From IMG/VR virus record IMGVR_UViG_2657245664_000011: a stretch of 14,741 bases of DNA; one strand, 5' to 3'. Positions 1,136 to 11,886 of the stretch are shown piece after piece (the first letter of the stretch is position 1; every line of letters begins with the position of its first letter). The position numbers were made by a program, and so were the translations under genes. The DNA comes from a virus (Duplodnaviria; Heunggongvirae; Uroviricota; Caudoviricetes). The notes beneath the pieces are model-generated. The model searched no databases. It worked only from the letters and a program-made list of their open reading frames with translations, and had not been told where the DNA came from.

Positions 1136-2812
1136 CTAAGCAACATGTAGTTCATCGTTGGCGGAAGTGGCTGCTTTGCGCTCCTGCTCAATAGCTAGAG
1201 ACTCTCTATATTCTTTCGCCTCTGCAAACATTGTCCAGTGGGCGTTGATGTTCATGTCTTCAATAACTGATTTGATTTCTTTTAAATTTACGTTAAAAAA
1301 CTCTTTTCGTGAGTTAATTTTATTGACCTGCTTTTCGTTGAAAACTTTATGCAGATGGTTTTCTAATGATGGTGCATCATCACTATAAATCATCGCATGA
1401 ACATCGAACGAAAAAGGAACACTAGCATCTCCGAGTTCACGAACACGATCAAGTGGTTCAAGGCGGCGTGTCATTCCAATTTTATATACATCTTCGCCAA
1501 ATGAACCAATATTACTAATGATATAGACGTGGCCTGATCTGGTTTGTTGAGCCATAGAAATAGCTCGTTGATTTTTAGCTTCAGCTTCTTCATATTTTAA
1601 CTGTAGTTCAGCTATTTTTTGCTCTAAAGCTAAGCGTTGTTCTTCATTTGCAAGCATAAGTTCTTTCGTTGCTTTATTTATAGCTTGCTGAATAGCTTTT
1701 TCTTCTTTTTCAGCTTCTTTTATCGCTTTTTCATATTCTCTACGAGCTCTTTCCTCTTCACGAAGCTGTTCTTTAATCCTTCTTTGCTCTTCTTTTTCTT
1801 CGAGCATAATTTCATTAACTGCTACACCCCATTTTAGCTCGTTGAGTCTTGCCTGAAGATAGATGTCACTTATTTTTGCGGACCTAAAGGCAGAGCCATT
1901 GTAATTTACTAGTTGAAATGCATCTTTTATTTCTTGGGAAAGTTTTCCAAAATTGTTGTGTTTGACTTTTGATAAAATACTGTCAACTCTTCCATTGAAG
2001 GCATCCAAAACAAAGTTTATGGCAGTATTACGCCTGTTTTGCTCAACATAATCACACGAAGCAGCTTTATTAGTTTTTATTAATGATTTGGTTAACTCTC
2101 TGGCTTTTTGTAATTCCTTGCCTGCATCTGTAAATTCATAATTTTCTGCCAGCTCATCAAGTACACTACGGTTAGGGATGATCCATTCATCACCATAACC
2201 TTCAATTTTATTTTTCATTGATTTTGCAACTGCTTCATATTTTTCTGCAAACTCTTTAGCTTCATATGCTGAACCAGCAATCTCCTTTGCTCTTTCTTCT
2301 GCATCAGAAATAATTTTTACTGCATTGTCATTAGCATTTGAGATTAGCTCATTTGCTTTATTATTAGCATTATCAAGACGTTCTTTGGCTTTCAGGCGTG
2401 CATCGCGAGCGTCTTTGGTGATTGCTATAGCTTCGCTATTAGCGTTGCTTATTGTCATCTGAGCTTGATAATTTGCTTCGTTTACTGTTTTAGCCGCCTT
2501 AATTTGGGCTTCATCTATTTTTTGCTTGGCTATTGAGTCCGCATTTTTTATCTTATTCTCTGCATCCATTACTGCGCTGTGCAATTCTTCGTATTGCCAC
2601 AATGGTGCTGCTCGCCCTTCAAGCTCTGATAATTCTCGTACGGTCTGTGCTAGTTTTTCTTGATTTTCAATCAGTTGGTTAGAAAGGGCTATGTTGTTAG
2701 CTGTCAGGTTATCTATAGCCGCTTTGTGTTTTTTACTTTGTTTAAATAATATTACAGCTAGAACAGGGGCGAGAAATGCTAATAAGAGTATAACGATGGC
2801 AAATGAATTCAT
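1136..2812 (-). CDS. Prophage cargo protein: N-terminal transmembrane anchor, long coiled coils, a central DUF4041-like region and a C-terminal T5orf172/GIY-YIG-like domain; candidate defense or exclusion factor
   Basis: 558-aa ORF with an AAGGA ribosome-binding site 7 nt upstream of the ATG. The N-terminus (FAIVILLLAFLAPVLAVILF) is a hydrophobic helix. Long K/E/A/N-rich heptad-like stretches follow. The C-terminus (GHVYIISNIGSFGEDVYKIGMTRRLEPLDRVRELGDASVPFSFDVHAMIYSDDAPSLENHLHKVFNEKQVNKINSRKEFFNVNLKEIKSVIE) matches the T5orf172 pattern as I recall it. The gene is visibly more AT-rich than the flanking phage genes. Confidence 0.8.
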   Translation of the reverse strand: MNSFAIVILLLAFLAPVLAVILFKQSKKHKAAIDNLTANNIALSNQLIENQEKLAQTVRELSELEGRAAPLWQYEELHSAVMDAENKIKNADSIAKQKIDEAQIKAAKTVNEANYQAQMTISNANSEAIAITKDARDARLKAKERLDNANNKANELISNANDNAVKIISDAEERAKEIAGSAYEAKEFAEKYEAVAKSMKNKIEGYGDEWIIPNRSVLDELAENYEFTDAGKELQKARELTKSLIKTNKAASCDYVEQNRRNTAINFVLDAFNGRVDSILSKVKHNNFGKLSQEIKDAFQLVNYNGSAFRSAKISDIYLQARLNELKWGVAVNEIMLEEKEEQRRIKEQLREEERARREYEKAIKEAEKEEKAIQQAINKATKELMLANEEQRLALEQKIAELQLKYEEAEAKNQRAISMAQQTRSGHVYIISNIGSFGEDVYKIGMTRRLEPLDRVRELGDASVPFSFDVHAMIYSDDAPSLENHLHKVFNEKQVNKINSRKEFFNVNLKEIKSVIEDMNINAHWTMFAEAKEYRESLAIEQERKAATSANDELHVA

Positions 2813-2832
2813 TTTAAAATCCTTTTACTATA

Positions 2833-3429
2833 TTAATTCGAGACTATTGTACTTCTTATACAAGCAACCACTTCAATATCAGAAAATGCACATTCAAAGC
2901 TATTCTCTGCTGTTGTAATTTTAATCATTCCTTTAGGAAGCCTTGTGATTTTTCGAATGGAATAGGTTCCGTCGATATTGATTAACCAGTTTCCATCAAG
3001 TACTTCAGAAAATTTTTGATCACAAATGTATGTGACGAGTCCATCCTGAACAACAATTGGTGATGAAAGGTTTGCAGGAAGAAATGATGAATCGAAGACA
3101 TATGAACCGTCTTCAATCATTTTGCCTGCGGCAAGGCGAAACTTAACAAGCTCTTCTGTAGCTGCTGTCAGCGAGCTTTGCTTAAGGCCTTGTCCGGTAG
3201 TTAACCATTTGAGGGAGGTTCCTGTTTCAAGAGCACATTGGATTATCCAGTCAGCAGGAAATGTATCCCGCAAATACCTGTTCGCTAGTGTGCTTTTTGA
3301 TACTTCCAAGTGATCAGCTAAAGCCTGTCGTGTCGTAAAGCCATAGGCTTCGACTAATCGCTCAATCGCAGCCTTACCACCTTTATTGGGATTTATTTTG
3401 ATCTCACTTGGGTACTTTGATGTTGACAT
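2833..3429 (-). CDS. cI: CI-like immunity repressor (phage 186 CI type, N-terminal HTH plus C-terminal oligomerisation domain)
   Basis: 198-aa ORF divergent from apl/cII. The N-terminal pattern EAYGFTTRQALADHL...LANRYLR...CALETG..LKWLTTGQG is the 186 CI-type HTH as I recall it. Position and length are close to 186 CI. Confidence 0.8.
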   Translation of the reverse strand: MSTSKYPSEIKINPNKGGKAAIERLVEAYGFTTRQALADHLEVSKSTLANRYLRDTFPADWIIQCALETGTSLKWLTTGQGLKQSSLTAATEELVKFRLAAGKMIEDGSYVFDSSFLPANLSSPIVVQDGLVTYICDQKFSEVLDGNWLINIDGTYSIRKITRLPKGMIKITTAENSFECAFSDIEVVACIRSTIVSN

Positions 3430-3451
3430 ATCTCTTTTGCGATCCTAGTAT
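3423..3451 (+). promoter_or_regulatory. Candidate early lytic promoter pR (sigma70)
   Basis: TTGACA at 3423-3428, a 17-bp spacer, then TAGTAT at 3446-3451. It faces apl/cII and overlaps the cI start codon, consistent with a 186-type switch. Confidence 0.55.
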
Positions 3452-3458
3452 CAGTTTT

Positions 3459-3474
3459 GTACCCAATTGGGTAC
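3459..3474. promoter_or_regulatory. Perfect 16-bp palindrome GTACCCAATTGGGTAC at the predicted pR start; candidate operator for CI or Apl
   Basis: Exact dyad symmetry read directly from the sequence. A TTGGGTAC half-site recurs at 3408-3415. Confidence 0.45.
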
Positions 3475-3524
3475 TTGTCACGATTACTACAGGCTCACCA
3501 CAAGCCAATAGGAGATGTTGCATC

Positions 3525-3746
3525 ATGACCCCTAACATTTCAATAACTCTGAATACGCCACACGTCACAATCGAGCGTTATAGCGAACTTACTGGTCTTT
3601 CAATCGACACAATCAACGATATGTTGGCGGATGGTCGCATTCCTCGGCATCGTCTTCGTAAAGACAAGAAAAGAGAAAAGGTAATGATCAACCTTGCTGC
3701 TCTTACCGTTGATGCACTTACTGATTGCAATGTTGTATTCAACTAG
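3525..3746 (+). CDS. apl: Apl/Cox-like excisionase and transcriptional regulator
   Basis: 73-aa ORF that is the first gene rightward of the switch. A small basic protein with an HTH-like segment ([29 protein letters not shown]). The ATG at 3525 is preferred over the upstream TTG of the ORF track because that extension would run through the promoter and into cI. Confidence 0.7.
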
Positions 3747-3778
3747 TTCCATTTTGGGATACATCAGAGGTGTCGACC

Positions 3779-4288
3779 ATGTTTGATTACCAAGTTTCCA
3801 AACATCCACATTTTGATGAAGCCTGTCGTGCATTCGCACTGCGCCACAATCTGGTGCAACTGGCAGAACGTGCGGGCATGAATGTGCAGATTCTGCGGAA
3901 CAAGCTGAACCCAGCTCAACCTCATTTATTAACCGCACCAGAAATCTGGCTGCTTACCGATCTGACTGAAGATTCAACGTTGGTAGATGGTTTTCTGGCA
4001 CAGATTCATTGTCTGCCATGTGTACCGATTAATGAGGTAGCAAAAGAGAAACTGCCGCATTACGTCATGAGCGCAACTGCAGAGATCGGGCGTGTTGCAG
4101 CAGGTGCGGTATCTGGTGATGTAAAAACTAGTGCCGGTCGTCGTGATGCTATCAGCAGCATTAACTCTGTAACACGACTGATGGCTCTGGCTGCTGTTTC
4201 ATTGCAAGCCCGTTTACAGGCTAATCCTGCGATGGCGAGTGCAGTTGATACCATGACTGGCCTTGGTGCTTCATTCGGTTTGCTGTGA
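3779..4288 (+). CDS. cII: CII-like activator of lysogeny establishment (186 CII type)
   Basis: ATG at 3779 with an AGAGG ribosome-binding site 8 nt upstream gives a 169-aa product starting [21 protein letters not shown], which closely resembles 186 CII as I recall it and matches its length. Confidence 0.8.
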
Positions 4289-4295
4289 GGTGTTT

Positions 4296-4592
4296 ATGCT
4301 GACGAAAGAACCATCATTTGCATCGCTGCTGGTAAAACAAAGCCCGGCAATGCACTACGGTCACGGCTGGATCACGGGTGAGGATGGAAAACGCTGGCAT
4401 CCATGTCATTCACAAGATGAATTGCTGTCTGAATTGACCACGAGGAAACGGAGAAAGTCCAAATGTATGCGGCAGAAAGTGAAGTGGTTTATCAGTTTCG
4501 TTACAGAGGGGAGAGTTATTCAGTACCTGAAGGTGATTTGCTCTGTTGCTATCCGTCATTGTCGGGCGATGGCAGTTACTTTTTCACGTTAA
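4296..4592 (+). CDS. Hypothetical early protein in the fil/dhr position
   Basis: ATG at 4296 with a GAGG ribosome-binding site. The N-terminal half looks protein-like, while the Cys/Arg-rich C-terminal third overlaps the next ORF and may not be translated as drawn. Confidence 0.4.
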   Translation: MLTKEPSFASLLVKQSPAMHYGHGWITGEDGKRWHPCHSQDELLSELTTRKRRKSKCMRQKVKWFISFVTEGRVIQYLKVICSVAIRHCRAMAVTFSR

Positions 4593-5352: not shown

Positions 5353-5579
5353 TGGCTGATGCAATGGATCTCGTACAGCAGCGCGTTGAAGAAGAACGCC
5401 AGCGCCATATCCGTGCAGCCCGTGCCAAATCACCGGGCGTGTCACGCGTACTTTGCATTGAATGTGAAGCGCCAATTCCGCCAGCACGACGCCGCGCCAT
5501 TCCGGGAGTGCAGCTTTGCATTACCTGTCAGGAAATCGCAGAACTGAAAGGCAAACATTACAACGGAGGTGCTGTATGA
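5352..5579 (+). CDS. TraR/DksA-family C4 zinc-finger protein
   Basis: 75-aa ORF with CIECEAPIP...CITCQ, two CxxC pairs at the spacing typical of phage TraR-like proteins. Confidence 0.7.
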   Translation: MADAMDLVQQRVEEERQRHIRAARAKSPGVSRVLCIECEAPIPPARRRAIPGVQLCITCQEIAELKGKHYNGGAV

Positions 5580-6433
5580 GCACCATCCTGAAATGGGCGG
5601 GAAATAAAACCGCCATTATGCCAGAACTGAAAAAATACCTTCCTGCTGGCCCGCGACTGGTTGAACCTTTCGCGGGTTCCTGTGCTGTGATGATGGAAAC
5701 GGATTATCCCAGCTATCTGGTTGCGGATATTAATCCTGATTTAATCAACCTCTATAAAAAGGTTGCCGCTGATTGTGAATCGTTTATATCTCGCGCCAGA
5801 GTTTTATTTGAGATCGCAAACAGGGAGGTGGCTTATTACAACATAAGGCAGGAGTTTAACTGCTCAACTGAAATTACTGATTTCATGAAAGCGGTATATT
5901 TCCTGTATCTCAATCGTCACGGTTACCGTGGTTTATGTCGCTATAACAAGAGCGGGCATTTCAACATTCCCTACGGTAATTATAAAAATCCGTATTTCCC
6001 TGAAAAAGAACTTCGCACATTTGCAGAAAAAGCCCAGCGAGCAACGTTTATCTGCGCCAGCTTTGATGAAACGCTGGCGATGTTGAAGGCGGGAGATGTG
6101 GTGTATTGCGATCCGCCATATGACGGTACGTTTTCCGGCTATCACACTGATGGTTTCACTGAAGATGACCAGTATCACCTGGCATCCGTTCTTGAACATC
6201 GGTCATCAGAAGGACATCCGGTCATTGTTTCTAACAGTGACACATCCCTGATCCGTTCGCTGTATCGCAATTTTACTCACCACTATATCAAGGTAAAACG
6301 CAGCATCGGTGTGGCAGCTGGCGAGGGTAAATCAGCAACAGAAATCATTGCTGTTTCCGGGCCGCGCTGCTGGATGGGATTTGATTATTCGCGTGGCGTG
6401 GATAGTTCTGCCGTGTACGGAGTACGTGCATGA
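5576..6433 (+). CDS. dam: Dam-family N6-adenine DNA methyltransferase (orphan, phage-encoded)
   Basis: ATG at 5576 with a GGAGG ribosome-binding site. Carries ILKWAGNK, an AdoMet-binding motif (EPFAGSCAV) and the catalytic DPPY. Start and stop overlap the neighbours as ATGA, so it is translationally coupled between the TraR-like gene and gene A. Confidence 0.85.
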
Positions 6434-7956
6434 GTCATGCCGATATGAACAACTGCTGCGGCTTTAACGAGGCTGCCGCAGCATTCTCATGGAACAGCCC
6501 GAAAAAGGCCATTAACCCTTATCTGGACCCGGCGGAAGTTGCGCCGGTTTCTACGCTTTCAAACCTGATCACTCTGTACGCTGCCGATAACGAGCAGGAA
6601 CAGTTGCGCCGCGAGGCACTGAGTGATCAGGTCTGGGAGCGTTATTTCTTTAATGAATCACGTGATCCTGTCCAGCGCGAAATGGAGCAGGATAAGCTCA
6701 TTAGCCGGGCAAAGCTGGCGCATGAGCAGCAGCGTTTTAATTCAGACATGGTCATTCTGGCGGACGTCAACGCCCAGCCTTCCCATATCAGCAAGCCGCT
6801 GATGCAACGTATTGAATACTTCAGCAGCCTGGGCAGGCCAAAGGCTTATTCCCGCTATTTACGTGAGACGATTAAGCCATGTCTGGAACGACTGGAGCAT
6901 GTACGCGACAGTCAGCTATCTGCATCTTTTCGCTTTATGGCAAGCCATGAAGGGCTGGACGGCCTGCTGATCCTGCCTGAAATGAGTCAGGATCAGGTGA
7001 AACGCCTGTCCACCTTGGTAGCTGCGCATATGAGTATGTGCCTTGATGCAGCTTGTGGTGATTTGTATGCCACCGATGACGTTAAGCCAGAAGAAATCCG
7101 CAAGACATGGGAAAAGGTGGCAGCGGAAACCCTGCGTCTGGATGTCATCCCACCTGCGTTTGAGCAACTCCGTCGGAAAAGAAACCGCCGTAAACCCGTG
7201 CCGTATGAACTCATTCCGGGTTCGCTGGCGCGTATGTTGTGCGCCGACTGGTGGTATCGGAAATTATGGAAGATGCGTTGCGAATGGCGGGAAGAGCAGT
7301 TGCGCGCTGTTTGCCTGGTCAGCAAAAAAGCATCTCCTTATGTCAGCTATGAAGCCGTGATGCATAAACGTGAGCAGCGCCGTAAGTCGCTGGAGTTTTT
7401 CCGTTCTCATGAACTGGTGAACGAAGACGGCGACACGCTGGACATGGAGGATGTGGTAAACGCCAGCAGCAGCAACCCTGCGCATCGCCGCAATGAGATG
7501 ATGGCCTGTGTTAAAGGTCTGGAGCTTATCGCGGAAATGCGCGGTGACTGCGCCGTTTTCTACACTATCACCTGTCCGTCGCGTTTCCATTCCACGCTAA
7601 ATAACGGCAGACCAAACCCGACCTGGACAAACGCGACGGTAAGACAAAGCAGCGATTATCTGGTCGGCATGTTTGCTGCATTTCGTAAGGCGATGCACAA
7701 AGCCGGGTTGCGCTGGTATGGCGTGCGGGTGGCTGAGCCGCATCATGATGGCACAGTTCACTGGCACCTGTTGTGTTTCATGCGCAAAAAAGACCGCCGT
7801 GCCATCACTGCATTACTGCGTAAGTTTGCCATCCGTGAAGACCGCGAGGAGCTGGGCAATAACACTGGGCCGCGCTTTAAGTCTGAGTTGATTAAGCACT
7901 GTGTGTCAGGCTGGATGGCGTGGAAAAATAGGTTTGTCGCCATTTTTTGTGAATAG
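6430..7956 (+). pseudogene. A: Replication initiation endonuclease gpA (rolling-circle HUH type), C-terminally truncated
   Basis: 508-aa ORF containing the HUH motif (TVHWHLLCF). It ends in a short atypical tail that overlaps the inverted terminase fragment. P2/186 A proteins are about 700-760 aa, so the C-terminal part is missing. Confidence 0.75.
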
Positions 7957-8764
7957 CCATACCGGAAGCCACTTTGCGCAGCTCCTGGAATTTCGGTATC
8001 CAGAAATATTCATCCAGATACAGGTTGCCGTGGTAACTCTGGGCCGTGCGGGCATTGGTGCCGAGGAAGTACAGCGTGGCCCCGTTAGGAAGCACCATCG
8101 GATCGCCTTTCAGCTCCACCTCCACTTCTTTGGCGAAGTCGATGATGTACTGCTTAAAGACGTGGGCCTGAGCCTTGCTGGCGGAAAGGAAAATCTGGTT
8201 ACGCCCGGTTAGCAGGGCGTCAATCAGGGCTTCACGGGCAAAATAGAAGGTCGCGCCGATCTGGCGTGACTTCAGCAGGTTGCGGATGCGGTTGGTTTTT
8301 CCGGCTTCCCACCAGTGGCGCTGGTAGTTGAACATGGAGGAATGGAAGATTTCTTCCAGCTTCTCAATCTGTTCATCGGTGAAAACGTTCTTTTCCGGCT
8401 GACGGCGCGGGCCTTTGTTGCGGTTGGCGACGTTAGGGTTTAAGTCGGCTTCGTTGCCGCCATTGTTAAACTTGCCGATCCGCGCATGGCGCTCCGACTG
8501 GCGCGCCAGCAGGTCAATCTCTTTGAAATCTTTCCCTTCTTTGTGCTCCTTCATAATGAGCTGGCAGTAGCGTGCGGCGGTGGTGAGCTGCATCTGATCC
8601 AGCGGCCCATAGTCACCCCACTTGTCGCGTTTTTTCCAGCTGTGAACGGTTGCAACTTTCTCGCCCAGCATTTCAGCAATGCGGGCTACGCGGTATCCCT
8701 GAAAGTACAGCAGCATGGCCTGCCGACGGGGATCGAGATCTGCGGGTGTCAGTGTGGTGTTCAT
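7892..8764 (-). pseudogene. P: Terminase ATPase (large subunit) gpP, N-terminal fragment only
   Basis: 290-aa ORF with P2 gpP-like N-terminus and Walker-type motifs ([24 protein letters not shown]). A full gpP is about 590 aa, and the nuclease half is absent. Its orientation is opposite to gene A, as in P2. Confidence 0.8.
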
Positions 8765-8813
8765 GGCACAAACCTACAGCCTTGAATGAAGGCTTTCCCC
8801 GCCTGCGGTTTGT

Positions 8814-9998
8814 GTGGTTGCGGGTTTACTTACTGCACCGTTGTCATCTTTGCGCCGCACGGCATCACTGACGGGAAATGTCATGAAAACTGTAGCAGGT
8901 GCGCCGGTTGCACTTTTGCGGTCTGGATTATCCGGTTTACGTGCTGTTGCTGTGATGTTTATGAATCCTCTGGCGGTACTGCGCGGTGGACTGGTCGCCG
9001 CAGGCACGGTGCTGCGAGTACTGGCATCTGGTCCACTGGCGATGCTGCGCGTTGCCCTGTATGCCGTATCTGGTCTGTTAGGTGCTCTGCTCAGTCCGAT
9101 AGGTCTTGTGGTTACTGCACTGGCGGGCGTGGCGCTGGTTGTCTGGAAATACTGGCAACCCATCACCGCATTTCTTGGTGGCGTGGTGGAAGGATTCAAA
9201 GCGGCGGCAGGTCCCGTCAGTGCAGCATTCGAACCACTTAAGCCTGTGTTTCAGTGGATTGGCGACAAAGTGCAGGCGCTCTGGGGCTGGTTTACTGATC
9301 TGCTGACGCCCGTTAAGTCGACCTCTGCCGAACTGCAGAGCGCAGCGGCAATGGGGCGACGATTCGGGGAGGCACTGGCGGAAGGGCTGAATATGGTTAT
9401 GCATCCGCTGGACTCCCTGAAATCTGGCGTTTCCTGGTTGCTGGATAAACTCGGCATTGTCAGTAAAGAGGCTGCAAAGGCGAAACTGCCGGAAAGCGTG
9501 ACGCGTCAGCAACCTGCGACGGTGAATGCAGACGGTAAAGTGATGATGCCATCGGGTGGTTTTCCGTCATGGGGATATGGCTTTGCGGGGATGTATGACA
9601 GCGGCGGCTATATCCCGCGTGGGCAGTTTGGCATCGTCGGTGAAAACGGGCCGGAAATTGTTAACGGCCCGGCAAATGTGACCAGCCGGAGAAATACAGC
9701 TGCACTGGCTGCCGTTGTTGCCGGAATGATGGGCGTTGCTGCCGCGCCAGCAGAGCTTCCACCGTTGCACCCTTTGGCACTTCCCGCGAAAGGTGGAGAA
9801 GCAATTGTGAGTCGCGCAGCCACTGTGCCGCTCGTTCAACGGATTGAGGCACCGACGCAGATCATCATTCAGACGCAGCCAGGACAAAGTGCGCAGGATA
9901 TTGCGCGGGAGGTGGCACGCCAGCTTGATGAACGTGAACGCAGGCTGAAGGCAAAAGCCAGGAGTAACTACAGCGATCAGGGGGGATACGACGCATGA
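8814..9998 (+). pseudogene. T: Tail tape measure protein gpT, C-terminal fragment
   Basis: 394-aa G/A/L-rich ORF whose stop overlaps the gpU start (ATGA). The frame opens only at 8790, a few bases from the terminase fragment start, and the first possible start is a GTG. P2 gpT is about 815 aa. Confidence 0.7.
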
Positions 9999-10480
9999 TG
10001 ATGGTGCTGGGATTGTACGTGTTTATGCTGCGCACCGTTCCGTATCAGGAACTGCAGTATCAACGCAGCTGGCGACATGCGGCAAACAGCCGGGTAAACC
10101 GTCGTCCGTCCACGCAGTTTCTGGGACCGGAAAACGACATGCTGACGCTTTCCGGTGTTCTTATGCCGGAGATAACAGGCGGCAGGCTGTCGTTGCTGGC
10201 ACTGGAGCAGATGGCAGAACAGGGGAAAGCATGGCCCCTGATTGAAGGCAGCGGCACGATTTACGGCATGTATGTGATTGAGGGACTGAATCAGACTAAA
10301 ACGGAGTTTTTCCGCGACGGTATGCCGCGCAGGATTGAGTTCACCCTTTCGCTAAAACGGGTGGATGAATCCCTGTCCGATATGTTCGGTGATCTCAGTA
10401 CTCAACTGAATAATCTGCAGGACACGGCAACGTCTGCCTTAAGCGATATCAGTAAAACGGTGGGAGGGCTGCTGTCGTGA
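9995..10480 (+). CDS. U: Tail protein gpU
   Basis: 161-aa ORF in the T-U-D order, coupled to T upstream and D downstream. Its size matches P2 gpU. Confidence 0.85.
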   Translation: MMMVLGLYVFMLRTVPYQELQYQRSWRHAANSRVNRRPSTQFLGPENDMLTLSGVLMPEITGGRLSLLALEQMAEQGKAWPLIEGSGTIYGMYVIEGLNQTKTEFFRDGMPRRIEFTLSLKRVDESLSDMFGDLSTQLNNLQDTATSALSDISKTVGGLLS

Positions 10481-11577
10481 ATTTCAGCTCTGAACTGCTT
10501 AACAAAGGAAACAAAACTCCCGCATTCAGCATCAGTATTGAGGGGAAGGATATCACCACTGTGCTGGATAACCGCCTGATGAGTCTGACGCTGACGGACA
10601 ATCGGGGCTTTGAAGCGGACCAACTTGATCTGGAGCTGGACGACGCCGACGGAAAAATCGTGCTGCCGCGCCGTGGTGCGGTCATTACGCTGGCGCTGGG
10701 CTGGAAGGGGCAGCCGCTTTTCCCGAAAGGGGCATTCACGGTGGACGAGATTGAACACACTGGCGCACCGGACCGCCTGACTATCCGGGCGCGAAGTGCT
10801 GATTTTCGGGAAACGCTGAATACCCGCCGTGAAAAATCGTGGCATAACACCACCATCGGGGAAGTGGTGAAGGAAATAGCCGCGCGGCACAAGCTGAAGA
10901 TGGCACTGGGTAAAGACCTGTCGGATAAGCCCGTGGAGCATATAGACCAGACTAATGAGAGTGACGGCAGTTTTTTGATGCGGCTGGCGCGCCAGTACGG
11001 TGCCATTGCATCGGTGAAAAATGGCAATCTGTTATTCATCCGGCAGGGACAGGGCAAAAGCGCCAGCGGTAAACCACTGCCGGTGATTACTATCACACGT
11101 AAGGACGGCGACAGTCACCGCTTTACCCTGGCAGATCGCGGAGCTTACACGGGGGTAATTGCCAGCTGGTTGCATACCCGCGAACCCGCGAAGAAAGAAA
11201 GCACTACGGTGAAGCGTAAGCGCAGGACTAAGAAGCAGAAGAAAGAGCCGGAAGCGAAGCAGGGCGATTACCTGGTGGGGACGGATGAAAACGTGCTGGT
11301 ACTTAATCGCACTTATGCCAACCGGAGCAACGCTGAACGGGCAGCGAAAATGCAGTGGGAACGCCTGCAACGCGGCGTTGCGTCATTCTCGCTACAACTG
11401 GCGGAAGGGCGGGCAGATCTCTACACGGAAATGCCAGTGAAAGTCAGTGGCTTTAAACAGCCGATAGATGATGCGGAATGGAGCATTACGACTCTGACGC
11501 ATACCGTCAGCCCGGATAACGGTTTTACGACCAGTCTGGAGCTTGAAGTGAGGATTGATGATTTCGAAATGGAATGA
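10477..11577 (+). CDS. D: Tail protein gpD
   Basis: 366-aa ORF with a GTG start overlapping the U stop. It occupies the P2 D position immediately before ogr. Confidence 0.85.
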   Translation: MNFSSELLNKGNKTPAFSISIEGKDITTVLDNRLMSLTLTDNRGFEADQLDLELDDADGKIVLPRRGAVITLALGWKGQPLFPKGAFTVDEIEHTGAPDRLTIRARSADFRETLNTRREKSWHNTTIGEVVKEIAARHKLKMALGKDLSDKPVEHIDQTNESDGSFLMRLARQYGAIASVKNGNLLFIRQGQGKSASGKPLPVITITRKDGDSHRFTLADRGAYTGVIASWLHTREPAKKESTTVKRKRRTKKQKKEPEAKQGDYLVGTDENVLVLNRTYANRSNAERAAKMQWERLQRGVASFSLQLAEGRADLYTEMPVKVSGFKQPIDDAEWSITTLTHTVSPDNGFTTSLELEVRIDDFEME

Positions 11578-11667
11578 TTCTTCGCAATGGAGAACTTTTA
11601 AGTTTGCAAAATGGAATAATGCGGTATCATTATTGTGAATTTAGCAAAAATGGGGAGAACTCGAAAA

Positions 11668-11886
11668 ATGATGATTTGCCCACTGTGTGGAAGTGCCGCC
11701 CATACTCGCAGCAGTTTTCAGGTATCTTCATTGACCAAAGAGCGTTACAACCAGTGCCAGAACATTAACTGCAGCCATACTTTTGTTACCCATGAAACTT
11801 TTGTTCGTTCGATTGCAACGCCAAAAGAGTCAAATCCGGTTCAGCCGCATCCAATGAAATCAGGACAGGTGGCGCTCTCTCTTTGA
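11668..11886 (+). CDS. ogr: Ogr/Delta-family zinc-finger late transcription activator
   Basis: 72-aa product MMICPLCGSAAHTRSS...QCQNINCSHTF with the CxxC-(22)-CxxxxC arrangement of P2 Ogr and 186 B. A GGGGAG ribosome-binding site lies upstream. Confidence 0.85.
   Translation: MMICPLCGSAAHTRSSFQVSSLTKERYNQCQNINCSHTFVTHETFVRSIATPKESNPVQPHPMKSGQVALSL

Follow-up and report, generated by a model that had tools for sequence, protein, structure and literature searches.

Putative early lytic promoter and predicted CI operators of a 186-type prophage remnant in Escherichia coli

The stretch of DNA analysed here, referred to as the window (14,741 nucleotides), is the remnant, shortened by deletion, of a P2/186-like (Peduoviridae) prophage of Escherichia coli, located between rcdA and ybjL. 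The replication gene A, in the 6430–11886 region of the window, is truncated (positions 1–300 of 321 of the Phage_GPA profile) and is abutted by an N-terminal fragment of the terminase gene gpP (7892–8764), encoded on the opposite strand. After this fragment, only the C-terminal part of a probable tape-measure gene, gpU, gpD, and ogr are present, followed by the host genes ybjL, ybjM, and grxA; the tape-measure remnant was assigned by its position, and a Pfam search gave no match for it. The tail-gene remnant contains two copies of a 12-bp palindrome, CTGGCGCGCCAG (8498–8509 and 10984–10995). The immunity region is intact. Across cI-apl-cII its DNA is 99.9–100% identical to that of Escherichia phage vB_EcoM-813R9 (ON470620) and of about 170 E. 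coli prophages, which are integrated beside rcdA, as in the window. These are automatically annotated sequence records in which operator and promoter annotation is absent. The full immunity region was found in 173 of 5,426 complete E. coli genomes (coverage of at least 80%), and the same class of CI also occurs in Klebsiella, Citrobacter, and Raoultella and, more distantly, in Xenorhabdus.

The cI gene is located on the minus strand (2833–3429) and encodes a 198-aa repressor of the 186 CI type, as assigned from its open reading frame together with Pfam and PDB matches. The protein matches the Pfam families Phage_CI_repr (PF07022, E 8e-32) and Phage_CI_C (PF16452, E 4e-27), as well as the structures 2FJR (186 CI, E 7e-27) and 2FKD (E 2e-8), and is thus predicted to carry the N-terminal HTH domain and the C-terminal oligomerisation domain of 186 CI. 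[quoted passage not shown] Downstream lies cII (3779–4288, plus strand), which encodes a 169-aa protein of the Phage_CP76 family (PF06892, E 3e-42). A 10-nt repeat, CG[T/A/C]CACAATC, is found twice in apl, 42 bp apart (3563–3572 and 3605–3614), and once in cII (3842–3851). Between int and cI, the minus strand encodes a 558-aa protein (1136–2812) that matches the anti-phage defence protein PD-Lambda-1 (PADLOC, E 2e-120) and contains the Pfam domains DUF4041 and T5orf172; this PD-Lambda-1-like gene is predicted to be defence cargo occupying the int-cI slot of a P2/186-like prophage.

An earlier note on this DNA had described a strong promoter facing apl and cII, with its −35 element overlapping the start codon of cI, followed directly by a perfect 16-bp palindrome of which one half-site recurs nearby, and all of these features are borne out. 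The −35 element TTGACA (3423–3428) and the −10 element TAGTAT (3446–3451) are separated by a 17-nt spacer on the plus strand and match the sigma70 consensus at 10 of 12 positions. In a promoter scan of both strands from 2700 to 4400, this was the sole sigma70-like site. The trinucleotide CAT at 3427–3429 is the ATG of the minus-strand cI reading frame, hence the overlap with the −35 element. The start of transcription is predicted at about G3459 from the position of the −10 element alone. The promoter, pR, reads rightward into apl-cII and, assessed at the level of the consensus, is kept in all relatives examined, which span three CI types; its −35 element is retained in the heteroimmune ones as well.

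The palindrome, here called operator R (GTACCCAATTGGGTAC, 3459–3474), occupies approximately positions +1 to +16 of pR and is exactly 16 bp long, as the flanking T3458 and T3475 are non-complementary. Its half-site TTGGGTAC recurs at 3408–3415, within a second inverted repeat called operator L (GATCTCACTTGGGTAC, 3400–3415), which lies at about −59 to −44 of pR. Because the −35 element overlaps the cI ATG, L is located inside cI (codons 5–10), and part of its conservation may therefore stem from the protein. The two elements belong to a 22-nt direct repeat, TTTTGATCTCACTTGGGTACTT (3396–3417) and TTTTGTACCCAATTGGGTACTT (3455–3476), whose copies are 82% identical and 59 bp apart. The half-site of L and R can be written G-W-W-C-Y-C-A-A and takes the form GTACCCAA or GATCTCAC in the window. 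Taken by itself, a perfect 16-bp palindrome is not significant, since 39 of 200 shuffles of the 14.7-kb window contain one; what speaks for an operator is where the element lies, that it recurs, and how it compares with relatives. With a threshold of 10 matching positions out of 12, the arm skeleton is found twice in the window against 0.5 expected, and both copies flank pR. The degenerate pattern GWWCYCANNTGRGWWC has three matches with at most one mismatch against 0.04 expected, although it was defined from two of these same three matches, L and R. The int gene contains GTTCTCCAGTGGGTTC (571–586), which departs from the operator pattern at one position (0.04 such matches expected) and could be either a distal CI site or a chance occurrence; conservation of this 16-mer in 23 of 23 loci with the same int is uninformative, as it lies in the coding sequence of near-identical prophages.

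A tentative third element, the candidate central operator M (TATCTCTTTTGCGATC, 3429–3444), lies in the pR spacer, 29 bp from L and 30 bp from R. It is identical to L at 10 of 16 positions in register and is poorly symmetric. Its position is that of the central operator of 186 and of a spacer palindrome of phage Cartapus, ATCTTGAATCAAGAT; its specificity is unproven, because the right half, TTGCGATCC, also occurs in the heteroimmune CFT073 type. Positions phased at 21 bp relative to R, with their centres at 3445.5 and 3424.5, gave no motif match by eye. The half-sites of L (3400–3403) and M (3441–3444) contain GATC (Dam) sites, and a D12-class adenine methylase is encoded by the prophage itself (5576–6433). 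It is conceivable that the predicted CI binding is sensitive to Dam methylation; GATC is not strictly kept in the R arms of Xenorhabdus prophages.

The variation of these elements was followed in 81 loci from genomes, IMG/VR, and metagenomes, which were chosen by an exact promoter match, so that conservation of 3423–3452 among them holds by construction. Perfect symmetry of R is found in 17 of the 81 loci, which together contain nine variants of the 16-mer; the perfect palindrome pointed out earlier is therefore real in the window but does not stand as a conserved trait. Substitutions fall mainly at arm positions 3/14 and at the central positions 7/8, with one locus varying also at 2 and 15. 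The sequence GT.CCC..TTGGG.AC is present in all but one of the loci (80/81), the exception reading GGCCCC...GGGTGC. The element thereby forms a local patch of raised variability in a near-invariant non-coding stretch, with values still below the average of the coding region. Operator L varies, among 52 unique relatives, at the central position 3407 and as one singleton at 3401, and all five of its synonymous third-codon positions are invariant in this set. Seven genomes found by CI similarity come from Escherichia, Citrobacter, Klebsiella, Raoultella, Silvania, Dryocola, and one Enterobacteriaceae isolate, that is, from at least six genera. Their CI proteins are 82–96% identical and their 160-bp control regions are about 96% identical. 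The skeleton G..CCC..TTGGG..C of R is invariant in these seven to eight CI-similar relatives.

Comparison of the repressors themselves links the operators to the DNA-binding part of CI. In the loci that share the promoter, the N-domain of CI (residues 1–77, including the HTH) is near-invariant, while at least six unrelated types of linker and C-domain are combined with the same N-domain and operator set (52 unique loci, L003–L115, in the region equivalent to 2833–3200), with a mosaic junction near residue 77–80. The N-domain and the operators thus behave as one unit. A further comparison separates CI from Apl. The prophages of CFT073, HCM-26C-1, and Klebsiella 4LV2017 encode an Apl 100% identical to that of the window, and their DNA is identical to it from 3477 rightward; they have a different CI and, at the same offset (+43.5 from the start of the −35 element), a different inverted repeat, GTGA-N7/8-TCAC. 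Since prophages with an identical Apl and another CI carry another inverted repeat at this place, the R element follows CI and not Apl. The CI proteins of CFT073 (L041, 237–1160, minus strand), of L042 (278–1213, minus strand), and of 4LV2017 (L043) are about 310 aa long and contain two tandem N-domains with an HTH of the 186 CI type. The recognition helix of the second HTH is nearly identical to that of the window CI (ISKSTLANRYMRD vs. VSKSTLANRYLRD); the operators flanking pR in these phages are of the GTGA type, unlike those of the window.

A more distant group consists of 27 Xenorhabdus prophages whose CI is 45–48% identical to that of the window. In these prophages the layout of L, pR, and R is kept, the cI ATG abuts TTGACA, and the −10 element is TAGTAT. 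The homologue of L, GATCTCAATATTGGTAT, is nearly invariant, and the distance between L and R is 61 bp. The R element reads G[T/A]TCT[C/T]-N5-GAGA[T/C/A]C, in which the arms are kept and the 5-nt centre varies freely. Operators bound by dimeric HTH proteins typically show this pattern, in which the arms are constant and the centre is not.

The remaining elements of the switch lie between R and cII. The leftward promoter pL, which the earlier note could not place with confidence, has a candidate on the minus strand (3515–3543) with the −35 element TTGAAA (3543–3538), a 17-nt spacer, and the −10 element CAACAT (3520–3515). It matches the consensus at 8 of 12 positions (3 of 6 in the −10 element), and it lies at the position homologous to 186 pL. 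In the relatives it is near-invariant, with 3522 and 3535 alone varying, and Xenorhabdus keeps TTGAAA-17-CAATAT there. One other leftward candidate, GTGACA-17-AAAACT across the palindrome, also reaches 8/12.

Just to the right of R, the minus strand contains the pentamers GTGAC, GTAGT, and GTGGT at 10-bp spacing (3475–3501; pentamers 3477–3501), in a region common to all CI types with the same Apl. The sites of factors of the Apl/Cox type are direct repeats at intervals of one helical turn, as opposed to inverted repeats (PMC7498355). The tandem pentamers fit such sites and are tentatively regarded as Apl/Cox sites, even if the motif is weak and the middle pentamer varies in the relatives. Similar tandem TGGTGGTNAN repeats are found beside int, on the att side in ON470620, the phage record with 99.9% identity. 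In that record, just beyond the left end of the window (L001, 1110–1169), two copies of AAAACAATAAGTTAGGTT precede the tandem repeats TGGTGGTCAG and TGGTGGTTAT beside int; the former are probably Int arm sites and the latter probably Apl sites.

At the start of cII lies the CII-binding inverted repeat ATGTTTG-N14-CAAACAT (3779–3806), whose arms are identical to those of the annotated 186 site. Near the apl stop and the cII start, an FR-like island, GTTCCATTTTGGGATA (3744–3761), aligns in register with 186 FR. Its positions 3744–3759 are conserved between variable flanks, and it contains a good half-site, TATCCCAA. The island is equally kept in heteroimmune phages, probably since it holds the −10 element of the establishment promoter pE (CAAAAT, the reverse complement of 3751–3756), which weakens it as independent proof of the motif. 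In the 186-type switch, FL and FR are distal operators on either side of pR, at a distance of about 300 bp. A counterpart of FL was sought in cI about 300 bp to the left of pR, where neither a pattern scan nor a conservation dip revealed an FL-like operator; two low-variation patches, at 3240 and 3290, were rejected because they follow the codon periodicity.

The reference for 186 was the record of Eganvirus ev186 (NC_001317), with half-site definitions taken from the GenBank annotation and from a reading of the sequence. In this record, three CI sites form a 57-bp block over pR (TTTACT, TATATT), and seven Apl sites, beginning at the pR start, lie between pR and pL. The latter promoter reads TTGCGA-17-CATGAT, and its −35 element starts 13 nt beyond the A of the ATG of apl; FR is located where apl ends, and the CII site where cII begins. 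Both phages have int and cI leftward, apl and cII rightward, a strong pR in the cI-apl gap, and CI proteins of the same two-domain fold family. The predicted and candidate elements of the window follow the order of the 186 annotation, namely CI sites, pR, Apl sites, pL, apl, FR, pE, and cII, and the distance between the apl ATG and the −35 element of the candidate pL equals that of pL in 186. The 186-type switch architecture proposed in the earlier note is thus upheld as to the identity and order of the genes, but not as to operator placement. In 186 the clear palindrome is located in the pR spacer, whereas in the window the clear palindromes flank pR at about −52 and +8, 59 bp from each other, and the overlap of the −35 element with the cI ATG, which places L inside cI, is also unlike 186. 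The predicted CI sites of the window span about 75 bp compared to 57 bp and are spaced by about 30 or 59 bp compared to about 21 bp. Further differences are the lack of a detected FL-like site in the window and the length of Apl (73 aa vs. 87 aa in 186).

The same note had not recognised the operator sequence from 186 or P2, and here the comparison gave a different answer. The central pR operator of 186, ATCTCTCAATTGGGAGAT, has the core CAATTGGG, which is also the core of the window palindrome; aligned over the site, CCCAATTGGG of the window matches TCTCTCAATTGGGAGA of the central 186 operator, with differences only at the three outermost positions of either arm. The half-sites share C-Y-C-A-A/T-T-G-R-G; the 186 half-site is TCTC[T/C]CAA, so that the outer three bases are TCT in 186 and GTA or GAT in the window. 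Correspondingly, the CI recognition helices are similar, though not identical (SSSLSNRYTRG in 186 vs. KSTLANRYLRD in the window), with an overall CI identity of about 30%. Given the shared core and the similar helices, the operator of the window can be considered a diverged relative of the 186 operator. The 186 operators are spaced two helical turns apart, which matches adjacent dimers of the CI 14-mer wheel (PMC3675496). This two-turn spacing was not found in the window, where L and R are 59 bp apart and M lies 29 and 30 bp from them; wrapping around a wheel is therefore an analogy only for this prophage. As regards the heptamer-of-dimers assembly of 186 CI, the window repressor shows homology in the C-domain.

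The P2 switch offers a second point of comparison. The early promoters of the P2 C/Cox switch (Pe/Pc) face each other, as is predicted for the window, and the first lytic gene is likewise of the Cox type, whose product also serves as excisionase. The P2 C protein is, however, about half the size of 186 CI and has direct repeats as its sites, and cII is absent from P2 (PMC1904268, PMC3448106). The 198-aa repressor of the 186 type, the inverted-repeat sites, and the presence of cII in the window do not fit a switch of the P2 C/Cox type. The immunity classes of 186-type CI repressors have been little studied (PMC3448106). A literature search for the palindrome sequence gave no match, and a search for binding, footprint, reporter, or start-site data found none for the window phage or its close relatives. 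To our knowledge, 186 is the only one of the 186-type CI classes with mapped operators.

Several other explanations of the palindrome can be set against the operator reading. If transcription starts at G3459, R could act mainly as RNA, forming a 5′-terminal hairpin of 6 bp with a 4-nt loop that protects the apl-cII mRNA from 5′-end-dependent decay. The predicted fold does place such a hairpin at the extreme 5′ end of the leader, and the corresponding element of the CFT073 type is likewise an inverted repeat. The fold of the leader is nevertheless ordinary (z −1.75; 11 of 200 shuffles fold equally well), the 3/14 pairing is broken in 32 of the 81 loci with no clean compensatory pattern, and the arms in Xenorhabdus are kept as sequence, not merely as complementarity. 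Moreover, the motif is also present at L, which is upstream of pR and outside its transcript. We consider this explanation improbable, and a hairpin would at most be an additional role beside that of an operator. That the palindrome is a functionless chance feature beside a real promoter is very improbable. The frequency of such palindromes in the shuffled windows and the loss of perfect symmetry in most relatives would be consistent with it, but a chance feature accounts poorly for an arm skeleton that is invariant across genera, a second copy 59 bp away, a positional equivalent kept in the Xenorhabdus clade despite a CI identity as low as 45%, and an element that is exchanged together with the CI type.

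Two further readings leave R a site on DNA, but not an operator of pR bound by CI. The element could lie between the hexamers of a maintenance promoter reading leftward, GTGACA (3481–3476), 17 nt, AAAACT (3458–3453), as its spacer, and would then be an autoregulatory site for that promoter. Besides its 8/12 match, such a promoter would start some 17 nt ahead of the cI ATG and keep the AAGAG Shine-Dalgarno sequence; its −10 element is poor, the geometry is lost in the CFT073-type relatives, where the element is 7–8 nt shorter, and 186 has no promoter at that position. This possibility is about as improbable as a chance origin. Least probable of all is that the palindrome binds Apl/Cox rather than CI. 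The Apl sites of 186 do start at the pR start and fill the interval between pR and pL, yet the preference of these factors for direct repeats speaks against such binding, as does the exchange of the element among prophages with an identical Apl, whose shared sequence begins only at 3477.

The operator reading remains the likely one, namely that the segment holds pR, the early lytic promoter of a prophage of the 186 type, together with operators for the CI of that prophage, and that the palindrome is the promoter-proximal CI operator R. Judged from sequence comparison, L and R are two clear inverted repeats that bracket pR, are predicted CI sites, and co-vary with the CI type. The perfect symmetry of R, a peculiarity of the lineage of the window, would make both of its arms optimal half-sites. 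The system belongs among the switches of the 186 type, though its operator has diverged and is placed differently; it does not amount to a new kind of switch and challenges no current concept. A distinct immunity specificity of the window CI and its operators, as the earlier note suggested, is plausible.

In a lysogen, CI dimers would occupy R and L, and perhaps the weak central site M in the spacer, and by analogy with 186 they may be bridged through the C-terminal oligomerisation domain. The approximately 75 bp spanning L to R would be bent or wrapped, and RNA polymerase would be kept off pR. Silencing of pR would relieve the interference on the weak convergent promoter pL, which could then transcribe cI leftward through pR. 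Upon loss of CI, pR would fire. Apl, made first, may bind the direct repeats just to the right of R and damp both pR and pL; by analogy, it may also direct excision. CII would act at its site at the start of cII and drive the establishment promoter pE. A more far-reaching proposal is that the CI N-domain together with L, M, and R forms a self-contained, horizontally exchanged immunity cassette, that the geometry of about 60 bp reflects a different engagement of the CI oligomer, and that the variation of R is divergence in progress; we regard this as speculative and rather unlikely in its entirety.

The region provides a concrete and testable set of predicted operators for a class of CI repressors found widely among prophages of Enterobacteriaceae. 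Its different operator spacing lets the tolerance of the 186 "wheel" model be probed. Additionally, the region predicts which P2/186-like phages a lysogen of the remnant would exclude.
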